A stretch of 64,000 bases of DNA from Vicinamibacterales bacterium (GTDB taxonomy: Bacteria; Acidobacteriota; Vicinamibacteria; Vicinamibacterales; UBA8438). The translations under genes and the position numbers were made by a program. The stretch spans positions 6,481,112 through 6,545,111 of the forward strand of contig CBDHGC010000004.1 of the NCBI GenBank assembly GCA_965262925.1, written 5' to 3'. A model generated the notes under the pieces. It did no database searches and had not been told where the DNA came from. It saw nothing but the letters and a program-made list of their open reading frames with translations. How positions within the stretch are numbered: position 1 is the stretch's first letter; the number at the start of each line of letters is the position of its first letter. Positions 86 to 12,892 of the stretch are shown one piece after another.

Positions 86-1136
86 GGAACTGTCCACCTC
101 AGCGCCCTTGCTCATCTCACCGTCCTGTCTGGTCCCGACCGTCTTCGCCGGCCGCCTTCCCCAACCCACTCGGTTGCCGCCCCCTGACGGTCACGCGGCT
201 TTCACCGCGCTTCAGGTACTATTCGGCCGTCCGACTCCTCGACGAGCATCCCTTCCCACTTCGCTCTCGCTTATAGGGTCAGTTGCCGCGGCGCCACCCG
301 CGGACCCGCCGAGGTCTCCCAGGGTCACGCACTGGTCTTCCATACCGTGCCGCCCGCAAACACCTTGGTGCGGTGGGTGGATGAGATCGCCTTCGCCTCT
401 GTAGTGCAGGCTCGACCTTGCCCCACCTTTGGCCGACCGGTTCGTCATGGGGTCGCCCCCTCGACTACGGCCCGGTACTGCTCCGCAAACCCTTCGGACC
501 CCACCTCACGGTGGGCGCCCTGTCCTCCGCAGTTCCGTCGTGGCGGCTCCAGGTCCACCTTGGCTGTGTCCGGCTTTCGCCTGCGTGCCCGTGTAGGTGT
601 CTCCATACCTGCCACCTGCGGCCGGCGAGGCATTACCCCCGCCTTTGGATACGGCCCCCCTCATCCGGGGGCCGGAGGGACTTCAACCCTCCTGACCAGT
701 GCGCTGCCTGGCGCACACTACGGGCCTCTCCGCCACCCTCGCCGGCCCGACCTGACCCTCACGGGCTGTCGGTTGGCACCGTGCCACGCCGCCGGCAGGG
801 CTTCCCGTGTTGCGTCCATTCCCCTCTTCCATGCGTGCCGCCGCCAATACCCCGGCGGAACCGGCCGGTGCTTCCGTCGCTCGCTTCCCGGCCCGTGGCA
901 GCCTTCCCCGTATTGTGGGCGGGTCGGCTTCCGCATTCGACGTTTCGAGGCCTGCTCGGCGTTCACTCGCGTTGCGGCCCGCATGGTCGCTGAGCCGCCC
1001 AATGGCGACCCGTGTCGTCGGAGTGCTTCAGGCGATGTCGTTGCCTCCATCGTCCGCTCCGACTGCTACCGGCTGGAACGACAGTTGCCGGGCGGGATTC
1101 GCACCCGCTGAGGAATGGCGCCTTCGCACGGCGCAC
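1..1136 (-). mobile_element. Group II intron-like retroelement, 5' part (ribozyme domains plus first codons of the intron-encoded ORF); continues beyond window start
   Basis: About 1 kb has no credible ORF. The minus strand is GC-rich with many GNRA-capped hairpins (GCGAAAGC, GGTGAAAGCC). GTGCG motifs (group II 5' consensus GUGYG) lie at 1136 and 716. A Shine-Dalgarno (GAGGTGG) plus ATG at 85 opens an ORF that leaves the window. The element interrupts the LuxR HTH reading frame at ~1137-1150. Domains V/VI and the RT body are off-window, so class and identity are unverified. Confidence 0.5.
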
Positions 1137-5346: not shown

Positions 5347-7085
5347 CCTAGCCCGGAAAATTCGTGGCGTGTTCTGATTCCGGTACAGACACAAGAGCCC
5401 CCGTGTGGTACAAGTGCAGTGTTAACAACCACTTGCGCCACCACGGAGGCCCTTGCGTGACGACCGACACTGTACCACAGACTGTTCTGTTCCCGGATCT
5501 GTTTGACAAGCCGCTGTTCGCCCAGTTCAACCAGGAGCAGGCCAGTTCCGACGGCGGGGCGATCCTGCTGAAGGCCGCCGAGCGCATCTACGGCCTGGTC
5601 AAGGCGTTCGCCGGGTGTCTGTTCGACAAGCGGGCGCCGGACAAGACCCGGCACTCGCTCGCGGACCTGATCGGCCAGCGCATCTTTGGCATCGCCTGCG
5701 GCCATCCCGACTGCAATGATGGCGACCGTCTCGCCGACGACCCCATCCACAAGCTGCTGCTCGACAGAGACCCGGTTTCGGGCGAGCGCCTGGCGTCGCA
5801 GCCGACGCTGTCGCGGTTCGAGAACGCGGTCAACGGCTGCGCGCTCTACCGCATGGCGGACGAGTTGGCCACGCGGGTCATCGCGCGGCATCGCCGCCGC
5901 CTGGACGGGCGGGCGCGGTGCATCACGATCGATCTGGACCCGACGGACGACCCGACGCACGGGGCGCAGCAGTACACGCTCTTCAACGGCTACTACGACA
6001 ACTGGTGCTACCTGCCGCTGCTTGGCTTCCTGACCTTCGACCGCGAATCCGAGCAGTATCTGTGCGCGGCGCTGTTGCGGCACGGCAAGGCGGTCGCCTC
6101 GGAGGGGACGGTCGGGCTGTTGTCGCGGTTGCTGCCGCGGCTGCGCCGGGCGTTTCCGCGGGCGCGCATTCTCGTTCGGCTCGACGGAGGCTTTGCCAGC
6201 CCGGCGGTCTTTGCCTTCCTGGAGGCGCAGCCGCGGCTCGATTACGTGATCGCGATGGCGAAGAACGCGGTGTTGGAGCGGTACGCCGAGCCGGCCATGC
6301 TGGTGGCGCGGGCGCGGACGTGGCGCAGCGAACAGACCGAGCACGTCTACACCGAGACCAACGAGTACCAGGCCGGCACGTGGAACCACGCGCGCCGCGT
6401 GGTGATCAAGGCCGAAGTCGTCCGCCACCGAGACCGCGAGCCGCGGGACAATCCGCGCTTCGTCGTGACCAACATGCGGCAGACGCCGCGTTTCCTCTAC
6501 GAGAAGGTCTACTGCGCCCGCGGGGACGCCGAGAACCGGATCAAGGAACTGAAGGCCCTACAGATCGACCGCACGAGTTGCCAGGCGTTTTCGGCGAATC
6601 AGTTGCGCGTCCTGCTGACGGCGGCGGCCTACGTGCTGATGCAGGAGTTGCGGCTGCGCGCCGCAGACACCGCGTGCGCCCGCGCGCAGGTGCCTTGGCT
6701 GCGCGACCGGCTGCTGAAGCTCGGCGTCCAGGTGGTGTGCTCGGTGCGTCGCATCGTCCTGCGCCTGCCGCGCGCGACACCGGACCTGGCGGCGTGGCGA
6801 CACATTGCGTTCGCGCTCGGGGCGCGCGCCGGATAGCCGCTCAACGAGCATCGCATCGCTGCCGGCCGGAGGGCTGTCAACCGCCTGACGGGTGGAACTG
6901 TCGTTGCCCGCCTCTTGCCGCCCTCATCACTACGGCGGTCGGCCGCTTGACCACACCATCACCCGCGGTCGGCGACGTTCGAAGGGCCGCCCACCCGTCG
7001 ATCACCCTCTACCGGTGACCGAATCGGGTGCTGTCACCTCCTGCCGGTGACCGCGGCGGGGTCGCCGTGAATAATCCAGGCTAGA
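5347..7085 (+). mobile_element. IS1380-family insertion sequence
   Basis: Terminal inverted repeats CTAGCCCGGAAAATTCGTGGCG (5348-5369) and the reverse complement of CGCCGTGAATAATCCAGGCTAG (7063-7084) match at 17/22. Size ~1.74 kb fits the family. Single transposase gene. Confidence 0.75.
5457..6836 (+). CDS. IS1380-family (DDE group 1) transposase
   Basis: Family-typical blocks: DGGAILL, QPTLSRFEN, IDLDPTDDPTHGAQQ...FNGYY, VRLDGGFASP, YCARGDAENRIKELK. GTG 5457 gives the usual N-terminus (TTDTVPQTVLFPD); the ORF track also allows 5364. Confidence 0.85.
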   Translation: MTTDTVPQTVLFPDLFDKPLFAQFNQEQASSDGGAILLKAAERIYGLVKAFAGCLFDKRAPDKTRHSLADLIGQRIFGIACGHPDCNDGDRLADDPIHKLLLDRDPVSGERLASQPTLSRFENAVNGCALYRMADELATRVIARHRRRLDGRARCITIDLDPTDDPTHGAQQYTLFNGYYDNWCYLPLLGFLTFDRESEQYLCAALLRHGKAVASEGTVGLLSRLLPRLRRAFPRARILVRLDGGFASPAVFAFLEAQPRLDYVIAMAKNAVLERYAEPAMLVARARTWRSEQTEHVYTETNEYQAGTWNHARRVVIKAEVVRHRDREPRDNPRFVVTNMRQTPRFLYEKVYCARGDAENRIKELKALQIDRTSCQAFSANQLRVLLTAAAYVLMQELRLRAADTACARAQVPWLRDRLLKLGVQVVCSVRRIVLRLPRATPDLAAWRHIAFALGARAG

Positions 7086-7181: not shown

Positions 7182-9637
7182 CTGCCCGTGCCCCATATTT
7201 TTTCGCTGAACTTCATGCAGCCACTTCGCTACGGTGGCCGGCATGGAGATTCAGAATCAGGTCTCACGTATTCTACGGGACAACCTCGCCCGCCTGCGCG
7301 ACGTGCTGGACGGAGCGGTGTCGCAGAGCGTCGGCAGCCTCGGGCAGGTCGCCGACCGCGTCTGTGAAGCGTTCGATTTCCGCGACGGGCGGGGCCGGTG
7401 GCAGCGCGCGAGCTGCTGCCGGGCGTTGTCCGACCTGCAAGCGGCCGGCCACGTTTCGCTGCCTGCGGGCCAGCCGGCTCGCGGCGTTGGGGGCCGGGCG
7501 CGGGTGCTTCCGCACCCGATGGCGCCGGCCGTGGACGTGCCGGGCACGGTCGGCAAGGTTGCGGGTCTGACCCTGGCGCTGGTTGAGACCGACGCGCAGC
7601 GCCAAGTCTGGAACACGCTGATGGCGTACGAGCACCCGCGCGGCGCCGGTCCGTTCGTCGGCCCGCAACTGCGGTATCTGGTGGGTTCGGCGCATGGTTG
7701 GCTGGGCGGCGTCGGGTTCGCGGCGAGTGCGCGGCGGCTGCGGTCCCGCGACGCCTGGGTCGGGTGGGACGACACGGGCCGGCGCGCGCACCTGCACCGG
7801 GTGTTGGGACTGTGCCGGCTGCTGGTGCGCCCCGGCATTGTGTGTCGCAACCTGGCCTCGCACGTGCTGGGCCGGGTCGTCCGGGCAGTCGGCGACGACT
7901 GCGAGGGTCTGTATGGCTATCGCCCCTGGCTGCTGGAGACGTTCGTCGACGAGACCGAACAGACGGGGGCGAGCGTGCGCGCGGCCAACTGGGTTCGGGT
8001 GGGCGCAACCTGCGGTCGCGGTCGCGGGGACCGCAGGCACGCGGCACTGGAAACGCGCAAGGCGGTGTATATGTATGCCTTGGAGCCGGCGTGGCGCACC
8101 CGCCTCGCGGCGCCCGCAGCGGTCGTGGCGCCGCTGGCGGTTGGCGACGGTCTCGACGCCGCGGTCTGGGCGGACCACGAGTTCGGCGGGGCGCGGTTGG
8201 GCGACGCGCGTCTGAGCGCGCGGCTGGTACAGAGCGCGCAGCAAATGGCAGAGTCTCCGATGCGCGCCATCACCGGCGCCGCCCACGGCGCCCGCGCCCT
8301 GGTCAAGGGCCATTACCGGCTGATCGACCAGCCCGCCGACAGCGCGGTGACGGTCGGCAACATTCTCGCGCCGCATCGCGAGCGCACGCTGCGCCGGATG
8401 CAGGCGCACGACACGGTGCTGTGCATCCAGGACGGCACCCGCCTGAACTTCACCCGGCGCGGCCGGACGCAGGGGCTGGGGGCCATCGGCTCGAACCAGA
8501 CCGGCGCGGTGGCGCGCGGCCTGGAGTTGCACACGACCTTGGCCGCCAATCCCGACGGGGTGGCGTTGGGCGTGCTGCGGGCCGCCTTCGACGCGCCCGC
8601 GTCCCCGAACCCCGCGGCGGAAGGCGAGCCGCCCCCGAAGCCGCGCGAGGAGCGCAAGTCGTTCCGTTGGATCGAGGGACTGCGCGACTGCGCGCAAGCG
8701 GCCGAGTCATTGTCCGAGACCCGCGTGGTGTGCGTGATGGACCGCGAGGCCGATTTCCTCGACCTGTTCGTCGAGCACCGCGCGGCTGCCCCGCAGGTCG
8801 ACCTGTTGGTCCGCGCCAAGGCCGACCGCGTCCTCGGCAGGGAGCAGACGCCCGACGGGCAGACAGTCTCGCGCCGTCTGTTCGATACGGTGCGCAACGC
8901 GCCGGCCCGAGGCGCCGCCAAGGTCGAGGTGCAGCGGCTGAGCGCGCGCGTGAAGGCCAGCAAACAGGCCCGCAAGGACCGCCGCGAGGCGCGTGTCGCC
9001 GACGTGACGCTGCGCTACCAGCAGGTGGCGCTGCCCTGCCCCGGCGCCGCGCCGGTCGAACTGTGGGTCGTCCATGTACGCGAGCAACAGCCGCCGCCTG
9101 CGGCCGAGCCGCTGGAGTGGTTCCTGCTGACCACGTTGCGTGTGAGCAGCGCCGCTGACGCCACGCGCATCCTGCAATGGTACGCTCGGCGCTGGCGCAT
9201 CGAAGAATACTTCCGGGTGCTCAAGTCGGGCTGCAGCGTCGAGGAGTTGCAGCACCACACGGCCGAGCGGCTCGAACGCGCCATGGCCATCAAGATGGTC
9301 ATCGGGTGGCGCATCCAGTTGATGGTTCAACTCGGGCGCGAAGTGCCCGACCTGCCGGGCGACCTGCTGTTCTCCGATGGCGAGTTGCGCGTGCTCGCCA
9401 CCTTCGCCCGCTCACGCAAGCTGCCGCCGCCGGCGCGCCTCGGCGACGCTGTCGGTCTGGTCGGGCGCCTCGGCGGTTGGCTCGGACGCCAACGCGACCC
9501 GCCCGGCGCACAGTTGATGTGGCACGGCTACACCCAACTGGTTGCCATGGCCTTCGCCTTCGAACTACGGGACGAATTCGGGTGACCTCCTGCTCATTAC
9601 ATTACAGTTCAGCCTCGGACATCCGGGGCACGGGTAG
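7182..9637 (+). mobile_element. Tn5/IS50-like (IS4 family) insertion sequence, 2456 bp
   Basis: IRL is CTGCCCGTGCCCC...CTGAACT (7182-7212). IRR (reverse complement of 9606-9637) is CTACCCGTGCCCC...CTGAACT. Flanks are nearly identical: GCCTAGCT (7174-7181) versus GCGTAGCT (9638-9645), consistent with an 8-9-bp target duplication. Confidence 0.8.
7234..9585 (+). CDS. Tn5-like DDE transposase with ~300-aa N-terminal DUF4338/DruA-like extension
   Basis: The C-terminal 470 aa resemble Tn5 Tnp: WADHEFGGARLGDARLSARLV..., VLCIQDGTRL, VCVMDREADF, WYARRWRIEEYFRVLKSGC. The N-terminal block has LRYLV...GWLGGVGF..RD.WVGW...RNLASHVLGR...YGYRPWLLETFVD, recalled as the DUF4338 pattern. Not HMM-verified. Confidence 0.85.
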   Translation: MAGMEIQNQVSRILRDNLARLRDVLDGAVSQSVGSLGQVADRVCEAFDFRDGRGRWQRASCCRALSDLQAAGHVSLPAGQPARGVGGRARVLPHPMAPAVDVPGTVGKVAGLTLALVETDAQRQVWNTLMAYEHPRGAGPFVGPQLRYLVGSAHGWLGGVGFAASARRLRSRDAWVGWDDTGRRAHLHRVLGLCRLLVRPGIVCRNLASHVLGRVVRAVGDDCEGLYGYRPWLLETFVDETEQTGASVRAANWVRVGATCGRGRGDRRHAALETRKAVYMYALEPAWRTRLAAPAAVVAPLAVGDGLDAAVWADHEFGGARLGDARLSARLVQSAQQMAESPMRAITGAAHGARALVKGHYRLIDQPADSAVTVGNILAPHRERTLRRMQAHDTVLCIQDGTRLNFTRRGRTQGLGAIGSNQTGAVARGLELHTTLAANPDGVALGVLRAAFDAPASPNPAAEGEPPPKPREERKSFRWIEGLRDCAQAAESLSETRVVCVMDREADFLDLFVEHRAAAPQVDLLVRAKADRVLGREQTPDGQTVSRRLFDTVRNAPARGAAKVEVQRLSARVKASKQARKDRREARVADVTLRYQQVALPCPGAAPVELWVVHVREQQPPPAAEPLEWFLLTTLRVSSAADATRILQWYARRWRIEEYFRVLKSGCSVEELQHHTAERLERAMAIKMVIGWRIQLMVQLGREVPDLPGDLLFSDGELRVLATFARSRKLPPPARLGDAVGLVGRLGGWLGRQRDPPGAQLMWHGYTQLVAMAFAFELRDEFG

Positions 9638-9679
9638 GCGTAGCTCGGCGCGGACCCGCGCGACCTCGAAGAGCGACCT

Positions 9680-9898
9680 TCGCCTCTCGAGGCCAAATGA
9701 AGCGAAAGCGGAATTCTCAAAGCAGGGATTCGAGCCCGGAGCCGCGGGAGCGGCGGAGCGCCTGAAGCCCACTCTCGCCGCCAAAACACACGGCAGGCAA
9801 CGGCGGAATTCTCAAAGCAGGGATTCGAGCCCGGAGCCGCGGGAGCGGCGGAGCGCCTGAATCCCACTCTCGCCGCCAAATGAAGCGAAAGCGGAATT
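9680..9898. repeat. tRNA-Ser(GGA) 3'-end-derived palindromic tandem repeats (~2.3 units, period ~95 bp)
   Basis: Units are anchored on GGGATTCGAGCCC at 9725 and 9820. Each contains CCTGAA(G/T)CCCACTCTCGCCGCCAAA, the sense copy of the tRNA 3' end, on the strand opposite the gene. The array directly abuts the tRNA 3' end. Confidence 0.85.
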
Positions 9899-9991
9899 TG
9901 GCGGAGAGAGTGGGATTCGAACCCACGGTAGGAGGATTACCCCTACACACGCTTTCCAAGCGTGCACCTTCAACCTCTCGGACATCTCTCC
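9899..9991 (-). tRNA. tRNA-Ser (anticodon GGA), CCA encoded
   Basis: GGAGAGATGTCCGAGAGGTTGAAGGTGCACGCTTGGAAAGCGTGTGTAGGGGTAATCCTCCTACCGTGGGTTCGAATCCCACTCTCTCCGCCA. 7-bp acceptor stem, anticodon loop TTGGAAA, long variable arm, T-loop TTCGAAT. Confidence 0.92.
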
Positions 9992-10081: not shown

Positions 10082-10762
10082 TCAGAATTCCCGTAGGCGC
10101 GACGACACGATGACATCCATCGCGCGGATATCCCTCTGCTGCACGAGGAGAGCCTTGTACGCGTGGTTGTACGCCTGCAGCATGTAGCCGAGCCGGGTCG
10201 TCCGGGCCAGACGGATCAGTCCTCCCCCGGAAGCGAGTTCCACGTAAACCTCGTCGCCGTCCTGCACCCGGCGGCTCGGGACTGCGATCGCGACGGTCTT
10301 CGGCCGGTGAGCTGGAACCATCGAGTCGCCACTGATCAGAATCCCGTAGGCGTCCGGATCGCGCAGGTCTCTCGGCCGGGACACCCAGTGCACGACGCCG
10401 GTCCGCTCTGCCCCCCGGTCGTCCCACGAGAGACCCGCCGGCGAAGCATCGCCCTCTGCCACCACCGGAATGCCGGCGGGTGTCACGATCGGGGATTCGA
10501 TACGCTCAGGTGCCGCACCAGCCACTCCGCACGCCTCCCGCACCCGGTCGTAGTCCGGATCGACCCCTACGAGCAACTCATCGACTGAGCAGCGGAGACC
10601 CTTCGCGATCTTGACGAGAGTCAGCGTTTCCAGGACGGAATAGCGGTCATTCTCCCAGTCAGAGACCTGGGGCTGCGGGACGCCCAGCAGGTCGGCCAAC
10701 GCCTTCTGCGTGTCAAGCCCCGCGTCCCGGCGCAACCGCCTGATGTTCTGGCCCAGCGACAC
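10082..10762 (-). CDS. XRE-HTH / S24 (LexA/CI-like) repressor, paralog A
   Basis: N-terminal HTH QKALADLLGVPQPQVSDWENDRY. C-terminal S24 fold with GDSM serine motif. The position aligned to LexA K156 (Ser+37) reads LIRLA, i.e. Arg. GTG start. Confidence 0.85.
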   Translation of the reverse strand: MSLGQNIRRLRRDAGLDTQKALADLLGVPQPQVSDWENDRYSVLETLTLVKIAKGLRCSVDELLVGVDPDYDRVREACGVAGAAPERIESPIVTPAGIPVVAEGDASPAGLSWDDRGAERTGVVHWVSRPRDLRDPDAYGILISGDSMVPAHRPKTVAIAVPSRRVQDGDEVYVELASGGGLIRLARTTRLGYMLQAYNHAYKALLVQQRDIRAMDVIVSSRLREF

Positions 10763-10872
10763 AAGAGACAGATTACCGCACCGACGACCAAACGTGAAAG
10801 AACTTACACGCGCGGAATCAATCAGTTAACGTAGAACCTGCCGTTCGTCCGACGAACGTCGCGAGGGCCTCG
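10763..10872. promoter_or_regulatory. Control region upstream of repressor A with ACGT-core boxes and a conserved leader box
   Basis: AT-richer spacer with AAACGTGA, TAACGTAG and GAACGTCG. The leader ACAGATTACCGCA (10768-10780) is identical to 11558-11570. A CGTTCG-N5-CGAACG hairpin (10842-10858) follows the stop of paralog B. Confidence 0.3.
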
Positions 10873-11559
10873 TCAGAAGTCCCGGCGGCGCGAGTACAGA
10901 ATGACGTGCATGGAATGAATGTCTTTCGCCTTGACGAAGCGCGCCGTGTAGACGTGATTGTACGTCTGCAGCATGTAGCCGCCGTGGGTCGCGTACGCCA
11001 AGCGGACCAGACACTCGCCGGACGGCAACCTGACGTAAACCTCGTCACCGTCCTGCACCCGACGGCCGGGAGACACGATCACGATGGAGCTCGGCCGGTG
11101 CGCCGGGGCCATCGAGTCGCCACGGATCTGAACGCCGTAAGCGTTCGGATCACGCAGATCCCCGGGGCGCGATATCCACTGCACGATGTCGGCTCGCTCT
11201 CTGCCCCGGTCGTCCGAGGTGACACCGTCCGGCAACGCCTCGCCTTCCGCCACCACGGGAATGTCAACGGGCACTTCGACCAGGAGATCGACGCTGGCAG
11301 CCTCGCGGACGGCGGCGCCGGTAGCCTCCCGAACCCGGTCGTAGTCCGGATCGATGCCCGCAAGCAACTGGTCCACGGAGCAGCGGAGGCCTTTCGCGAT
11401 CTTGACGAGGGTCAGGGTTTCCAGGACCGCGTAGCGGTCGTTCTCCCAGTCGGACACCTGGGGTTGCGGGACGCCCAGCAGGTCTGCCAGCGCCTTCTGG
11501 GTCTGGAGACCGGCCTCCCAACGCAGCCGCTTGATGTTCTGACCGAGCGACACGACCAC
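10873..11559 (-). CDS. XRE-HTH / S24 (LexA/CI-like) repressor, paralog B
   Basis: About 65-70% identical to paralog A, with a nearly identical HTH. Has GDSM; the Lys-equivalent position reads LVRLA (Arg). Start is GTG 11559 or GTG 11553. Confidence 0.85.
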   Translation of the reverse strand: MVVSLGQNIKRLRWEAGLQTQKALADLLGVPQPQVSDWENDRYAVLETLTLVKIAKGLRCSVDQLLAGIDPDYDRVREATGAAVREAASVDLLVEVPVDIPVVAEGEALPDGVTSDDRGRERADIVQWISRPGDLRDPNAYGVQIRGDSMAPAHRPSSIVIVSPGRRVQDGDEVYVRLPSGECLVRLAYATHGGYMLQTYNHVYTARFVKAKDIHSMHVILYSRRRDF

Positions 11560-11674
11560 AGATTACCGCATTTGAGGGTTCACGTTCAAAAACGTACCTC
11601 AATTCAATCAATGACTTACCGCTCAAAAAAATAGTCTTTACACGTTACTCCCGACCACATATAGTCAGAACCCG
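11560..11674. promoter_or_regulatory. Divergent control region between repressor B and the Cro-like gene
   Basis: AT-rich 115 bp. Contains CACGTTCAAAAACGTAC (arms ACGTT/AACGT, 11581-11597) and CACGTTAC (11641-11648). ATTGATTGA-like -35 candidates are shared with the paralog A upstream region. Confidence 0.35.
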
Positions 11675-11926
11675 ATGCTCACCAAGCAGCAACTCGAGAT
11701 CCTCCGTTCCGAGCCCGGCACCAACCGCGTGGCGAAGGCTATCGCCCTGGCCGGAGTCACGCAGGTGACCGTCGCCGAGGGACTCGGTTTGCCGCAGCCC
11801 TACGTCAGCGACGTGGCGCGACAACGCTACAAGACTATTACCGTCGAGAACGCCAGAAAGTTCGCAAAATTTTTCGGCTGCTCGATCGAGGACCTGTTCC
11901 CGCCGGCCGACGGGGGCAACTCGTGA
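11675..11926 (+). CDS. Small XRE/Cro-type HTH protein
   Basis: 83 aa. HTH GVTQVTVAEGLGLPQPYVSDVARQRY shares the LG.PQP.VSD...RY signature with both S24 repressors. Divergently transcribed from repressor B. Confidence 0.75.
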   Translation: MLTKQQLEILRSEPGTNRVAKAIALAGVTQVTVAEGLGLPQPYVSDVARQRYKTITVENARKFAKFFGCSIEDLFPPADGGNS

Positions 11927-11963
11927 CCCGGCGCATCGTCCGGCGGCCGTCGCCGAGGCGCCC

Positions 11964-12290
11964 GTGACGAGCCCGGCTCAACGCGATCGCGAGTTCACCT
12001 TCGGAAGCACGCCCTGCTACGTTGTCGTCCGGGCAGGCACGCCGCCGACCACGAGCGCGGCGATCGCCGACGTCTTCATCGTCGAAGAAGGGGGACGGGC
12101 TCTCCGCCGGATCGCCAACGCCCAAGGTACGCCGAGAACATTCAATGCCGATGGCGCCGACGAGGCGCTCGCCCTCGCGGCCCTGTACCTGGAGCGCCAT
12201 TTCGGACCACTTCGAGACGCCCCGGTCCCCGTCCCCGAACACGGTCCCGCCCGCCCCGTTCGCGAGCCGCCCCTGCGCCGGACCGACTGA
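11964..12290 (+). CDS. Hypothetical protein (108 aa)
   Basis: GTG-initiated ORF with high third-position GC. Lies downstream of and co-oriented with the Cro-like gene. No recognisable motif. Confidence 0.35.
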   Translation: MTSPAQRDREFTFGSTPCYVVVRAGTPPTTSAAIADVFIVEEGGRALRRIANAQGTPRTFNADGADEALALAALYLERHFGPLRDAPVPVPEHGPARPVREPPLRRTD

Positions 12291-12329
12291 CGGAACCGGC
12301 GAGTCCAGCGCCGGCAAGCATGGACGGGG

Positions 12330-12801
12330 CAAGGGATTCGTGCCCGAAGCGGCGCGAGCCGCGCAGCGCCTGAATCCCACCCTCTCCGCCAAATGGAGCG
12401 AATGCGGAATTTGGCGAAAAAACGAGCAGGGATTCGTGCCCGAAGCGGCGCGAGCCGCGCAGCGCCTGAATCCCACCCTCTCCGCCAAATGGAGCGAATG
12501 CGGAAATTTGGCGGAGAAAACGAGCAGGGATTCGTGCCCGGAGCGGCGGGAGCCGCGCAGCGCCTGAATCCCACCCTCTCCGCCAAATGGAGCGAATGCG
12601 GAAATTTGGCGGAGAAAACGAGCAGGGATTCGTGCCCGGAGCGGCGGGAGCCGCGCAGCGCCTGAATCCCACCCTCTCCGCCAAATGGAGCGAATGCGGA
12701 AATTTGGCGGAGAAAACGAGCAGGGATTCGTGCCCGGAGCGGCGGGAGCCGCGGAGCGCCTGAATCCCACCCTCTCCACCAAATGGAGCGAATGCGGAAT
12801 T
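12330..12801. repeat. tRNA-Ser(CGA) 3'-end-derived palindromic tandem repeats (~4.8 units, period 96-98 bp)
   Basis: GGGATTCGTGCCC anchors at 12333, 12429, 12527, 12625 and 12723. Each unit carries GAATCCCACCCTCTCCGCCA, the last 20 nt of the adjacent tRNA, on the opposite strand, plus a degenerate antisense arm TTTGGCGGAGAAAACGAGCAGGGATTC. Ends exactly at the tRNA 3' end. Confidence 0.9.
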
Positions 12802-12892
12802 TGGCGGAGAGGGTGGGATTCGAACCCACGTGCCGGTTTCCCGACAAGACGCTTTCGAGGCGCCCCCGTTACGACCACTTCGGTACCTCTCC
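12802..12892 (-). tRNA. tRNA-Ser (anticodon CGA), CCA encoded
   Basis: GGAGAGGTACCGAAGTGGTCGTAACGGGGGCGCCTCGAAAGCGTCTTGTCGGGAAACCGGCACGTGGGTTCGAATCCCACCCTCTCCGCCA. Anticodon loop CTCGAAA, long variable arm. Confidence 0.9.

Follow-up and report, generated by a model that had tools for sequence, protein, structure and literature searches.

A repeat element directly behind tRNA genes of Vicinamibacteria with arms templated on the neighboring tRNA, possibly a functional analog of Escherichia coli RtT

In Escherichia coli K-12, the tRNA genes tyrT/tyrV are followed by 178-bp repeats known as RtT (rttR; Rfam RF00391). In our E. coli control, each RtT repeat ended in AATCCTTCCCCCACCACCA, i.e., the tRNA-Tyr 3′ end from the T loop on, and in the Rfam RtT consensus the internal GGGGAAGGA pairs with UCCUUCCCC of this tRNA-end copy, with CCACCACCA left unpaired. 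RtT is reportedly processed from the tyrT transcript, an observation attributed to Bösl and Kersten in 1991. Its role is unclear and may lie in the stringent response, a view echoed in the literature (bioRxiv 10.1101/2024.07.17.603846, PMC3318445). Here, we describe a lineage-wide element of about 95 bp that lies directly 3′ of particular tRNA genes in Vicinamibacteria, among the soil Acidobacteria, based on a 64,000-nt stretch of contig CBDHGC010000004.1 from a Vicinamibacterales bacterium (the window, meaning the whole stretch; L-numbers such as L019 denote the loci or assemblies compared with it). The family is an unreported variant of a known but neglected kind of element, and no description of it was found in the literature searched. 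Its description is solid; its function we infer from sequence comparison, and we tentatively favor an RtT-like reading, as a boundary structure and tRNA mimic, which taken as a whole falls somewhat short of probable.

Like RtT, the window units are tandem repeats placed directly 3′ of a tRNA gene, and they hold a tRNA 3′-end copy with its start in the T loop. Two tRNA-Ser genes are concerned, both on the minus strand and both with encoded CCA, namely tRNA-Ser(GGA) at 9899–9991 (ARAGORN; Rfam RF00005, 53 bits) and tRNA-Ser(CGA) at 12802–12892 (ARAGORN, Rfam). Directly 3′ of the former, about 2.3 units of 95 bp occupy 9684–9898; directly 3′ of the latter, an array of five units of 98 bp (individually 96–98 bp) occupies 12318–12801 on the plus strand. 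Tandem Repeats Finder reported a period of 95 at 9708–9880 (1.8 copies, 98% matches) and a period of 98 at 12332–12810 (4.9 copies, 97% matches). Within the 64 kb, matches to the core GGGATTCGNGCCCG(N)GCGCCTGAA number seven (9725, 9820, 12333, 12429, 12527, 12625, and 12723), all of them inside the two arrays, with 0.00 expected from 100 shuffles. A preliminary description of this DNA had proposed about 2.3 units anchored at 9725 and 9820 with a period of about 95, sharing their core with the array at 12.3–12.8 kb; both proposals stood, with a truncated third-unit remnant at 9684–9715 as a small addition.

Each unit consists of a 14-nt spacer (S), an arm of 20–23 nt, and a conserved module of about 42 nt with a stem and a GC hairpin; the arm repeats, in inverted form, the stretch of the adjacent tRNA that reaches from T loop to CCA. 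At the GGA locus, the tRNA side of a 23-bp palindrome (9896–9918) takes in the final 20 nt of the tRNA gene, which run from the T loop to CCA, and 3 nt more. S forms the palindrome loop GAAGCGAAAGCGGA (9882–9895, plus strand; the S motif was compared across loci) and contains the plus-strand mini-hairpin GCGAAAGC, and the proximal arm GAATCCCACTCTCGCCGCCAAAT (9859–9881) reads on the plus strand as a copy of the tRNA-Ser(GGA) 3′ end with one mismatch. The two halves are 96% complementary over 23 nt with 14 nt between them, as the preliminary description had it. Farther out on the plus strand follow the proximal-unit module GGGATTCG-A-GCCC-GGA-GCCGC-GGGA-GCGGC-GGA-GCGCC-TGAA (9820–9861), the distal-unit arm GAAGCCCACTCTCGCCGCCAAA with two mismatches to the tRNA end (9764–9785), a distal-unit module of the same sequence as the proximal one (9725–9766), and the third-unit remnant, a degenerate arm with an S-like spacer, CTCTCGAGGCCAAATGAAGCGAAAGCGGAATT (9684–9715). 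At the CGA locus, where the modules start at the last five core positions given above, the plus-strand arms lie at 12372–12394, 12468–12490, 12566–12588, 12664–12686, and 12762–12784. The last of these, the proximal arm, pairs with 12799–12821 at 96% complementarity; the other four arms are 100% complementary. At four sites of this array (12423–12736, minus strand), each internal junction carries on the tRNA-sense strand a small hairpin CGGGCACGAATCCCTGCTCG followed by TTTTCT, and at the same four junctions the tRNA-end copy on that strand is remodeled, with TGCTCGTTTTCTCCGCCA in place of ACCCTCTCCGCCA. It is the one hairpin here that scores as an intrinsic (Rho-independent) terminator, and it does so at chance level (4 found vs 3.5 expected).

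Across the family, the order in tRNA sense is constant. The tRNA ends in ..GGTT|CGAATCCC, the acceptor 3′ strand, and NCCA, and it is followed by S (14–20 nt across the family), the arm, the core, and CGAATCC(C). In this sense the arm reads TGG-N-(acceptor 5′ strand)-(T-stem 5′ strand)-ATTC, complementary to tRNA positions 57–76, and the core reads AGGCGC, a variable GC hairpin, and C(Y)(Y)CGGGCN. In the module, an 8-bp stem, GGGAUUCG/UGAAUCCC, is followed by an internal loop with G·A pairs on its flanks and then by a 5-bp GC hairpin, whose loop is of the GNRA or GNA type.

CCCACTCTC is the arm of the GGA locus and CCCACCCTC that of the CGA locus, each in agreement with its own tRNA. The preliminary description had noticed this one distinguishing base and had allowed for a polymorphism or sequencing error. 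A look-up of an identical 83-aa helix-turn-helix (HTH) protein (11675–11926) led us to ten strain-level copies of the locus, and the difference is kept in these ten sister-strain assemblies; it is hence neither a sequencing error nor a polymorphism. We furthermore scanned one genome per species with a pattern limited to the module and the T-loop-derived flanks, so that the tested arm positions (TGG, discriminator, acceptor stem, and first two T-stem bases) were left out of the pattern. The scan gave 34 loci, 24 of them real, in more than 20 metagenome-assembled genomes (MAGs), all from Acidobacteriota and mostly from Vicinamibacterales. Family members sit 3′ of tRNA-Ser(CGA), Ser(GGA), Ser(TGA), Ser(GCT), Gln(CTG), and Glu(TTC), with one orientation throughout. 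In each case the arm follows the local tRNA; Gln genes, for example, have TGGCTGGGAGGCAGGG-type arms, Ser-TGA has GGAGGGACAGGG, and Ser-GCT has GGTGAGGCAGGG. Over the 13 arm positions unconstrained by the search, identities to the own tRNA amounted to 205/260, a value reached in none of 20000 permutations. At bystander tRNAs, no inverted arm was found (0/16 non-bait tRNAs), a sample too small to give a background frequency.

Within one tRNA type, the arms follow as well. Behind Ser-TGA genes with the T stem CAGGG/CCCTG (L016, L024) the arms read ..GACAG(A)GG, and behind those with CGGGG/CCCCG (L002, L018, L034) they read ..GACGGGG; likewise, the arms follow the difference between the Gln acceptors CCTCCCA (L017) and CGTCCCA (L031). 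Between tRNA types, arms differ in blocks of 6–9 positions and homology ends sharply in the T loop, which points to templated copying rather than to stepwise point mutation. Taken together, these alignments establish that the arms are templated on the neighboring tRNA. The earlier proposal that arms are made from the adjacent tRNA gene and are not copies of one fixed mobile sequence is thereby borne out over six tRNA species, behind Ser, Gln, and Glu genes of the same and related genomes, and the evidence for locus-specific arms is far stronger than the single position available before. Some units have misled annotation: units with a 7-nt loop can be mis-annotated as tRNA genes, ARAGORN called a Ser-TGA-type unit in L016 (2848–2921, minus strand) a tRNA-Thr(tgt), which is spurious. 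Apart from the units, ARAGORN reported a putative tRNA-Arg(gcg) of unusual length (95 nt) in L012 (5540–5634, minus strand).

Quasi-palindrome template switching could rewrite an arm in one step. It would explain the sharp boundaries and also the direction of change, in which the tRNA is constrained and the arm changes; the tRNA half of the hairpin cannot change, so the arm would have to follow the tRNA. PMC8604942, PMC13100816, and PMC7202029 describe template switching as homogenizing and extending inverted-repeat arms. The same process could also have made an element without any function: template switching at a terminator or S hairpin and the T arm GGGTTCGAATCCC would have inverted and duplicated the tRNA end, in the manner of a tandem inversion duplication, and slippage would have amplified the product. 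Such a neutral replication by-product would draw on a known mechanism (the papers cited above and PMC5941160), on an arm boundary that several unrelated lineages have within TTCGAA, a palindrome in the T loop, and on a highly unstable copy number. It leaves unexplained, however, that S and the module are common to six tRNAs, that loop motifs are strand-specific, and that the units are 92–95% conserved beside an unalignable spacer. We consider it very improbable and place it last among the rivals, behind, in order of decreasing likelihood, a miniature integrative element, an antisense trailer, and a trans-acting decoy. Template switching is a mutational mechanism and not an element; it probably accounts for the rewriting of the arms, not for the persistence of the element.

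This persistence is seen when the window species, represented by its single-unit strain L161, is compared with the species of L012. Between these two, identity is about 92% for the unit, 100% for the tRNA, and 80–87% for the convergent open reading frame (ORF) ORF108, and the 40–90-nt spacer between the ORF108 stop codon and the unit is unalignable. Arm and core together are 93–95% identical to L028, L003, and L012; toward L029, the unit is 84–89% identical and tadA 83.5% at the nucleotide level. The hairpin stem shows the compensatory exchange GCGGC/GCCGC vs GCCGC/GCGGC, with at least six different stems across clades. Furthermore, 3–4 base pairs that extend the palindrome past the tRNA into S covary (CAC/GTG, CAT/ATG, AAT/ATT, AACT/AGTT, AATC/GATT). 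Conservation and covariation thus mark an element that is maintained and not a decaying relic, and as judged from these alignments the unit is under purifying selection.

Structures were read by per-sequence parsing together with alignment within clades, as hairpin lengths differ between clades. On the plus strand of the window, opposite the tRNA, the arm is a copy of the tRNA 3′ end and not its complement, and it is on this strand that all the strand-specific structural motifs are found. The terminal loops of the core hairpins read GCGA, GGGA, GAGA, GCA, GAA, GCCA, GTCA, and GGCA there, and among 22 stem/loop variants G..A loops number 14 on the plus strand vs 1 on the other. The plus-strand internal loop is always 5′-GRA opposite 5′-GNA with flanking G·A pairs, the inner end of the outer stem holds a G·U pair that would be an A·C mismatch on the other strand, and the center of S carries a mini-hairpin of the GCGAAGC, GCGAAAGC, GCGGAGC, or GCCGAAGGC type. 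This asymmetry opposes the local GC skew, the plus strand being C-rich. The minimum-free-energy difference between the strands was mixed and uninformative. The plus-strand unit would fold as the stem strand GGGAUUCG, the module, its partner UGAAUCCC, and an unpaired tail of 13 nt, ACCCUCUCCGCCA.

In this fold, the unit shares the design of RtT. In both, a 5′ arm (GGGGAAGGAU in RtT; GGGAUUCG with UGAAUCCC in the window) pairs with the T-stem part of the tRNA-end copy, the core is closed and has GC hairpins and GNA loops, and the acceptor-CCA tail is unpaired. RtT and the window module also share a weak, orientation-specific local similarity (z = 3.7). In comparison with the E. coli control, the well-kept tRNA-end copy of the window units lies on the strand opposite the tRNA. 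Unlike RtT, the window unit is half the size and its module is inverted relative to the tRNA; its inverted arm is full length (20–23 nt), sits 14 nt from the tRNA, and forms a near-perfect palindrome with it; and the Vicinamibacteria family extends over at least six tRNA species, each of which has arms rewritten to match it. The orientation of the motifs suggests that transcription, if any, proceeds from the strand opposite the tRNA, again unlike RtT. By analogy, the window element would work like RtT, but it is not a member by the RF00391 model.

In the reading that we favor, the active form is a single strand opposite the tRNA, the plus strand of the window, most likely as RNA. The strand-specific motifs on the plus strand agree better with an arm that mimics the tRNA end, or that pairs with antisense-tRNA sequence, than with one that pairs with the tRNA. 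The element could hence be a tRNA-3′-end mimic like E. coli RtT, set tail to tail with the tRNA, and its most likely job would be that of a structured end for transcripts that converge on the tRNA gene. Its arm would pair with the first 20–23 nt of antisense-tRNA sequence to form a hairpin of 23–27 bp, which the stable mini-hairpin would cap exactly at the gene boundary. Such a boundary hairpin might act in both directions by stopping, processing, or insulating. A convergent gene often lies right beside the unit.

Several observations weigh against this RtT-like reading. The 23-bp hairpin has no U tract on either strand, and several loci have no convergent gene nearby. If co-transcribed on the tRNA-sense strand, the hairpin would out-compete the cloverleaf by 10–18 kcal/mol, which looks costly. 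Stable DNA hairpins, too, typically have G·A-rich loops, so that the strand could be active as DNA. Our search patterns biased detection, and the loci are phylogenetically non-independent. Finally, RF00391 had no match in the window at the gathering score (45 bits) or at E ≤ 10, and a covariance model of the window module was not significant against RtT and a second family described below, family II (best E 0.4). With no covariance-model match either way, kinship with RtT rests on architecture and on the weak local similarity.

The preliminary description had gone on from templating to selection for pairing with the tRNA 3′ end. Its templating part holds, but the pairing part is not supported. 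Positions opposite NCCA vary freely (TGGC to TCGC, TCTC, TGAC, TGTC, CATC, or CGGC), conserved arm mismatches recur at arm positions 7–9 and 17, and the GGA-locus arm keeps a fixed mismatch to its tRNA (CTCGCC vs CTCTCC) that persists across species, being common to the relatives L019 and L029. Distal units decay, with CCCACCCGCGACGCCA as the arm in L164 and L168. Distal decay and the shared GGA mismatch make both continuous homogenization and strict selection for perfect pairing unlikely. The same observations, and the location of the structural motifs on the other strand, bear on the idea that the arm acts as antisense within a tRNA-sense 3′ trailer, where it would pair with the 3′ end of its own tRNA, with the mature tRNA, or with 3′ fragments to control folding, processing, or abundance. 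Proximal arms are indeed complementary at 18–20/20 positions at many loci, a long hairpin would be thermodynamically favored in a read-through transcript, and E. coli RtT is said to be made from the tRNA transcript. Yet family II has a canonical terminator between tRNA and arm, and together with the variable NCCA-opposite positions, the recurrent mismatches, and the decaying distal arms this makes an antisense trailer improbable.

The mimic part of the RtT-like reading may also be thought of in trans. The plus-strand RNA would then end in a free acceptor-strand-CCA tail and would sense, or divert as a decoy, factors that recognize the 3′ ends of tRNAs. Candidates are RelA and the stringent response, which have been proposed for RtT, CCA-adding enzymes, trimming enzymes, and toxins directed at the acceptor end. 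The RtT-like architecture includes the unpaired tail (13 nt, ACCCUCUCCGCCA, vs 9 nt in RtT), the motifs occur on the strand where the arm copies the tRNA, and multi-copy arrays would increase dosage. On the other hand, there is no conserved upstream promoter, and the plus-strand RNA is so far a prediction drawn from DNA. S and the tRNA gene come after the tail, so that processing would have to generate a defined CCA 3′ end where there is no acceptor helix, and the function of RtT is itself unproven. We rate a trans-acting decoy as improbable too, and rank it just after the antisense trailer.

Family II came from a metagenome scan with the pattern CTCTCCGCCA-N10-30-TGGCGGAGAG. Among the 120 matches listed, at least 21 lie at genuine tRNA-Ser 3′ ends and most others are unrelated palindromes. 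In these lineages, which lie outside Vicinamibacteria, the tRNA is followed by a canonical, bidirectional-looking terminator hairpin, an inverted tRNA-end copy that stops in the T loop (..GGGATTCGAA), a structured insert of 40–150 nt that is unrelated or distantly related, and a closing GAATCCC. Among the matches listed, the family II arms follow the T-stem variant of their own tRNA, and tandem loci occur in L059, L077, L081, L098, and L110. Structured elements of 170–200 bp behind tRNA-Ser, after a canonical terminator and ending in GGAGGGAATCCC, were seen in L059, L067, L080, L096, and L110; the tandem in L110 has a period of 199 bp, and the second family gave no Rfam match. The family II 3′ module in tRNA sense resembles the plus-strand window module (z 7.7 and 4.4), with the other orientation at noise. 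We may speculate that RtT, the Vicinamibacteria family, and family II (about 170 nt) make up a widespread, unrecognized class of tRNA-3′-end mimic RNAs that serve in trans as decoys or sensors of enzymes reading the acceptor end. Its members would be tail-to-tail or tandem copies of the last 20–24 nt of a tRNA, fused to a structured module and rewritten for each tRNA, and the enzymes could be the stringent-response machinery, 3′-end processing enzymes, or acceptor-end toxins. In this breadth, the proposal is unlikely.

Core types and copy number bear on how the element spreads. Clade B cores, with a long hairpin, occur at Ser-CGA, Ser-GCT, and Gln in one set of MAGs, and clade A cores, with a short one, at Ser-CGA, Ser-GGA, Ser-GCT, and Gln in Vicinamibacterales. 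Since core type follows lineage and not tRNA identity, units must have spread or been homogenized between tRNA loci within lineages. Most genomes have a single unit that ends at CGAATCC(C), with non-tRNA-like sequence beyond. Arrays are tandem duplications of the segment from CGAATCCC..CCA through S and arm to core, bounded by the short direct repeat CGAATCC(C) that occurs both in the tRNA T loop and at the core end. In young arrays, the internal tRNA-end copies are perfect, as in L017 with four units, of which the three complete ones are identical, and the last array unit is invariably cut at CGAATCC. Behind Ser-CGA, one unit is present in six strain assemblies and L019, two in three strains, five in the window, and seven in L164; behind Ser-GGA, five are present in L159, two in four strains and the window, and about one in L019, all counted in metagenome assemblies that may contain assembly error. 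The arrays thus expand and contract fast by unequal recombination at the CGAATCC(C) direct repeat.

A mobile origin is the foremost of the rivals, which we regard as unlikely. The units would be a miniature element of the integrative or cassette-like sort, or what is left of one as fused arms after decay; it would target the tRNA T loop and bring a replacement tRNA 3′ end; its inverted arm would fold one strand into a duplex attachment (att) site, as in integron attC and CTXphi attP, a recombinase in trans would insert it, and repeated insertion beside the tRNA would build arrays. As at att sites of T-loop-class integrases, the tRNA identity block runs from exactly within the T loop to CCA (GGGCN|CGAATCCC..CCA in the L017, L008, and L004 arrays; GAATCCC..CCA in L067), there is a T-arm-like half-site, GGGCNCGAATCCC, and the arrangement at the tRNA gene is tandem. 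L067 looks like attL/attR around an insertion of about 230 bp, with a complete second tRNA-end copy and a different terminator: the tRNA, terminator 1, the arm, 150 nt, GAATCCCCCACTCTCCGCCA, and a different terminator 2. That core type tracks lineage would imply spread between tRNA loci, and G·A-closed loops and GCGAAGC are classic stable DNA hairpins. Like attC and CTXphi attP, the units are imperfect palindromes of 60–100 nt, and they have two paired boxes, an unpaired central spacer, a variable tip, strand-specific structure, and tandem arrays.

The tRNAs concerned are integration hot spots, and genuine islands use them in sister strains. Both tRNA-Ser genes have received islands in the tRNA 3′ end, one with a tyrosine integrase; the sites are at about 4740–6300 in L166/L167, downstream of the tRNA at 2225 in L161, L163, L166, and L167, in L012 with L015, and in L005. 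The islands leave a tRNA fragment of 14–24 nt and the unit array at their far side. Apparent unit loss in L161, L163, L166, L167, L012 with L015, and L005 is such an island inserted in the tRNA 3′ end, with the unit displaced.

Unlike att sites, however, the window units have no integrase or cargo between repeats, the integrase islands of L166/L167 being separate insertions, and the crossover of real islands at these tRNAs falls at a different point (CAC|CCTCTCC). The element is no larger than about 95 bp, its conserved copy is inverted, and it is vertically inherited and constrained, with orthologous units conserved above neighboring coding DNA. Unlike attC, it lacks RYYYAAC/GTTRRRY boxes, its own boxes being tRNA-derived (TGGCGGAGA / GGGATTC), has no IntI or Xer association and no cargo genes, and no integron integrase was found in the window ORFs examined. 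An integrase or transposase is not consistently nearby, and the 34 loci hold no split or autonomous copies. In the strain set no tRNA was free of units, and no empty site occurred in 12 strain- or species-level copies. No unit was found in viral contigs or in phage or plasmid collections; the four viral-contig matches of the palindrome pattern were one host-type tRNA-Ser locus and three without a tRNA. Finally, the last array unit stops at CGAATCC without a displaced original tRNA end, which speaks against insertion.

A further resemblance is to the primer-binding site of retroelements, whose form the tRNA-sense arm has exactly, with TGG and then the complement of the final 18–20 nt of a tRNA as far as the T loop. 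It is not accompanied by a reverse transcriptase or retroelement, though, and the arm always matches the adjacent tRNA, so that this is resemblance only. Among other identities, coding potential was rejected because the periods of 95 and 98 nt are not multiples of 3. Degraded inverted tRNA genes, guides like those of clustered regularly interspaced short palindromic repeats (CRISPR), TnpB/IscB guide RNAs, group I/II intron guide pairings, and retrons were dismissed for lack of associated proteins and for wrong size or layout. The window units gave no cloverleaf call with ARAGORN or the Rfam tRNA model, which does not fit a tRNA or pseudo-tRNA gene, and a CRISPR array was rejected as whole 95–98-bp units repeat at 97–98% identity without variable spacers. 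A miniature inverted-repeat transposable element or insertion sequence (IS) derivative does not fit, as 7/7 copies in 64 kb lie at two tRNA-Ser genes and the 34 loci hold no dispersed or split copies; nor do REP/BIME palindromes (repetitive extragenic palindromes/bacterial interspersed mosaic elements), scattered intergenic copies being absent from the 64 kb and only the two tRNA-Ser arrays present. Rfam searches at gathering scores and at E ≤ 1 or E ≤ 10 returned only tRNA and sub-threshold noise (sX4, miRNA families). No neighbor protein is conserved across tRNA types; there is only locus-specific synteny, next to spurious high-GC ORFs that run through the repeats.

Around the two loci, the window holds other mobile and coding sequence. 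An IS4/Tn5-type element (7234–9641, plus strand) has its right end at 9641, just beyond the third-unit remnant, and encodes a 783-aa transposase with an N-terminal DruA-like domain (PF14236, PF14706, PF01609, PF02281). L160 has this element, L019 and L159 lack it, and in L162, L164, and L165 a different insert lies a few bases away. The remnant at 9684–9715 is ancestral and was not cut by the IS, being found in L019 and L159 too. Between both tRNA-Ser genes, a block at 10082–12290 contains two tandem HTH-XRE/peptidase-S24 (LexA/CI-like) paralogs 791 bp apart, a Cro-like HTH gene, and a 108-aa ORF; it is common to L004, L012, L019, L029, and L159–L168. In L162, L164, and L165, an IS110-family element has split the palindrome GCCGGCCGGC in the interval from tadA to tRNA-Ser(CGA), immediately upstream of the tRNA gene, with the IS110-family transposase at 5565–6302 in L162. 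A match to group II intron D1-D4 (967–1110, minus strand; RF02003, 84 bits) marks a further mobile element in the region.

In practical terms, unit arrays that inflate and deflate beside tRNA integration hot spots may confuse predictions of att sites and genomic islands, and units can be miscalled as tRNAs or ORFs. Should the RtT-like reading hold, the 45-year-old E. coli tyrT repeat would be one member of a broad class of elements that copy tRNA 3′ ends. Arms made for each tRNA, a conserved module, and strand-specific motifs would then provide a comparative handle by which function becomes testable. The Vicinamibacteria family would also be a natural case of non-coding sequence forced to co-evolve with an immutable neighbor, probably via quasi-palindrome template switching.

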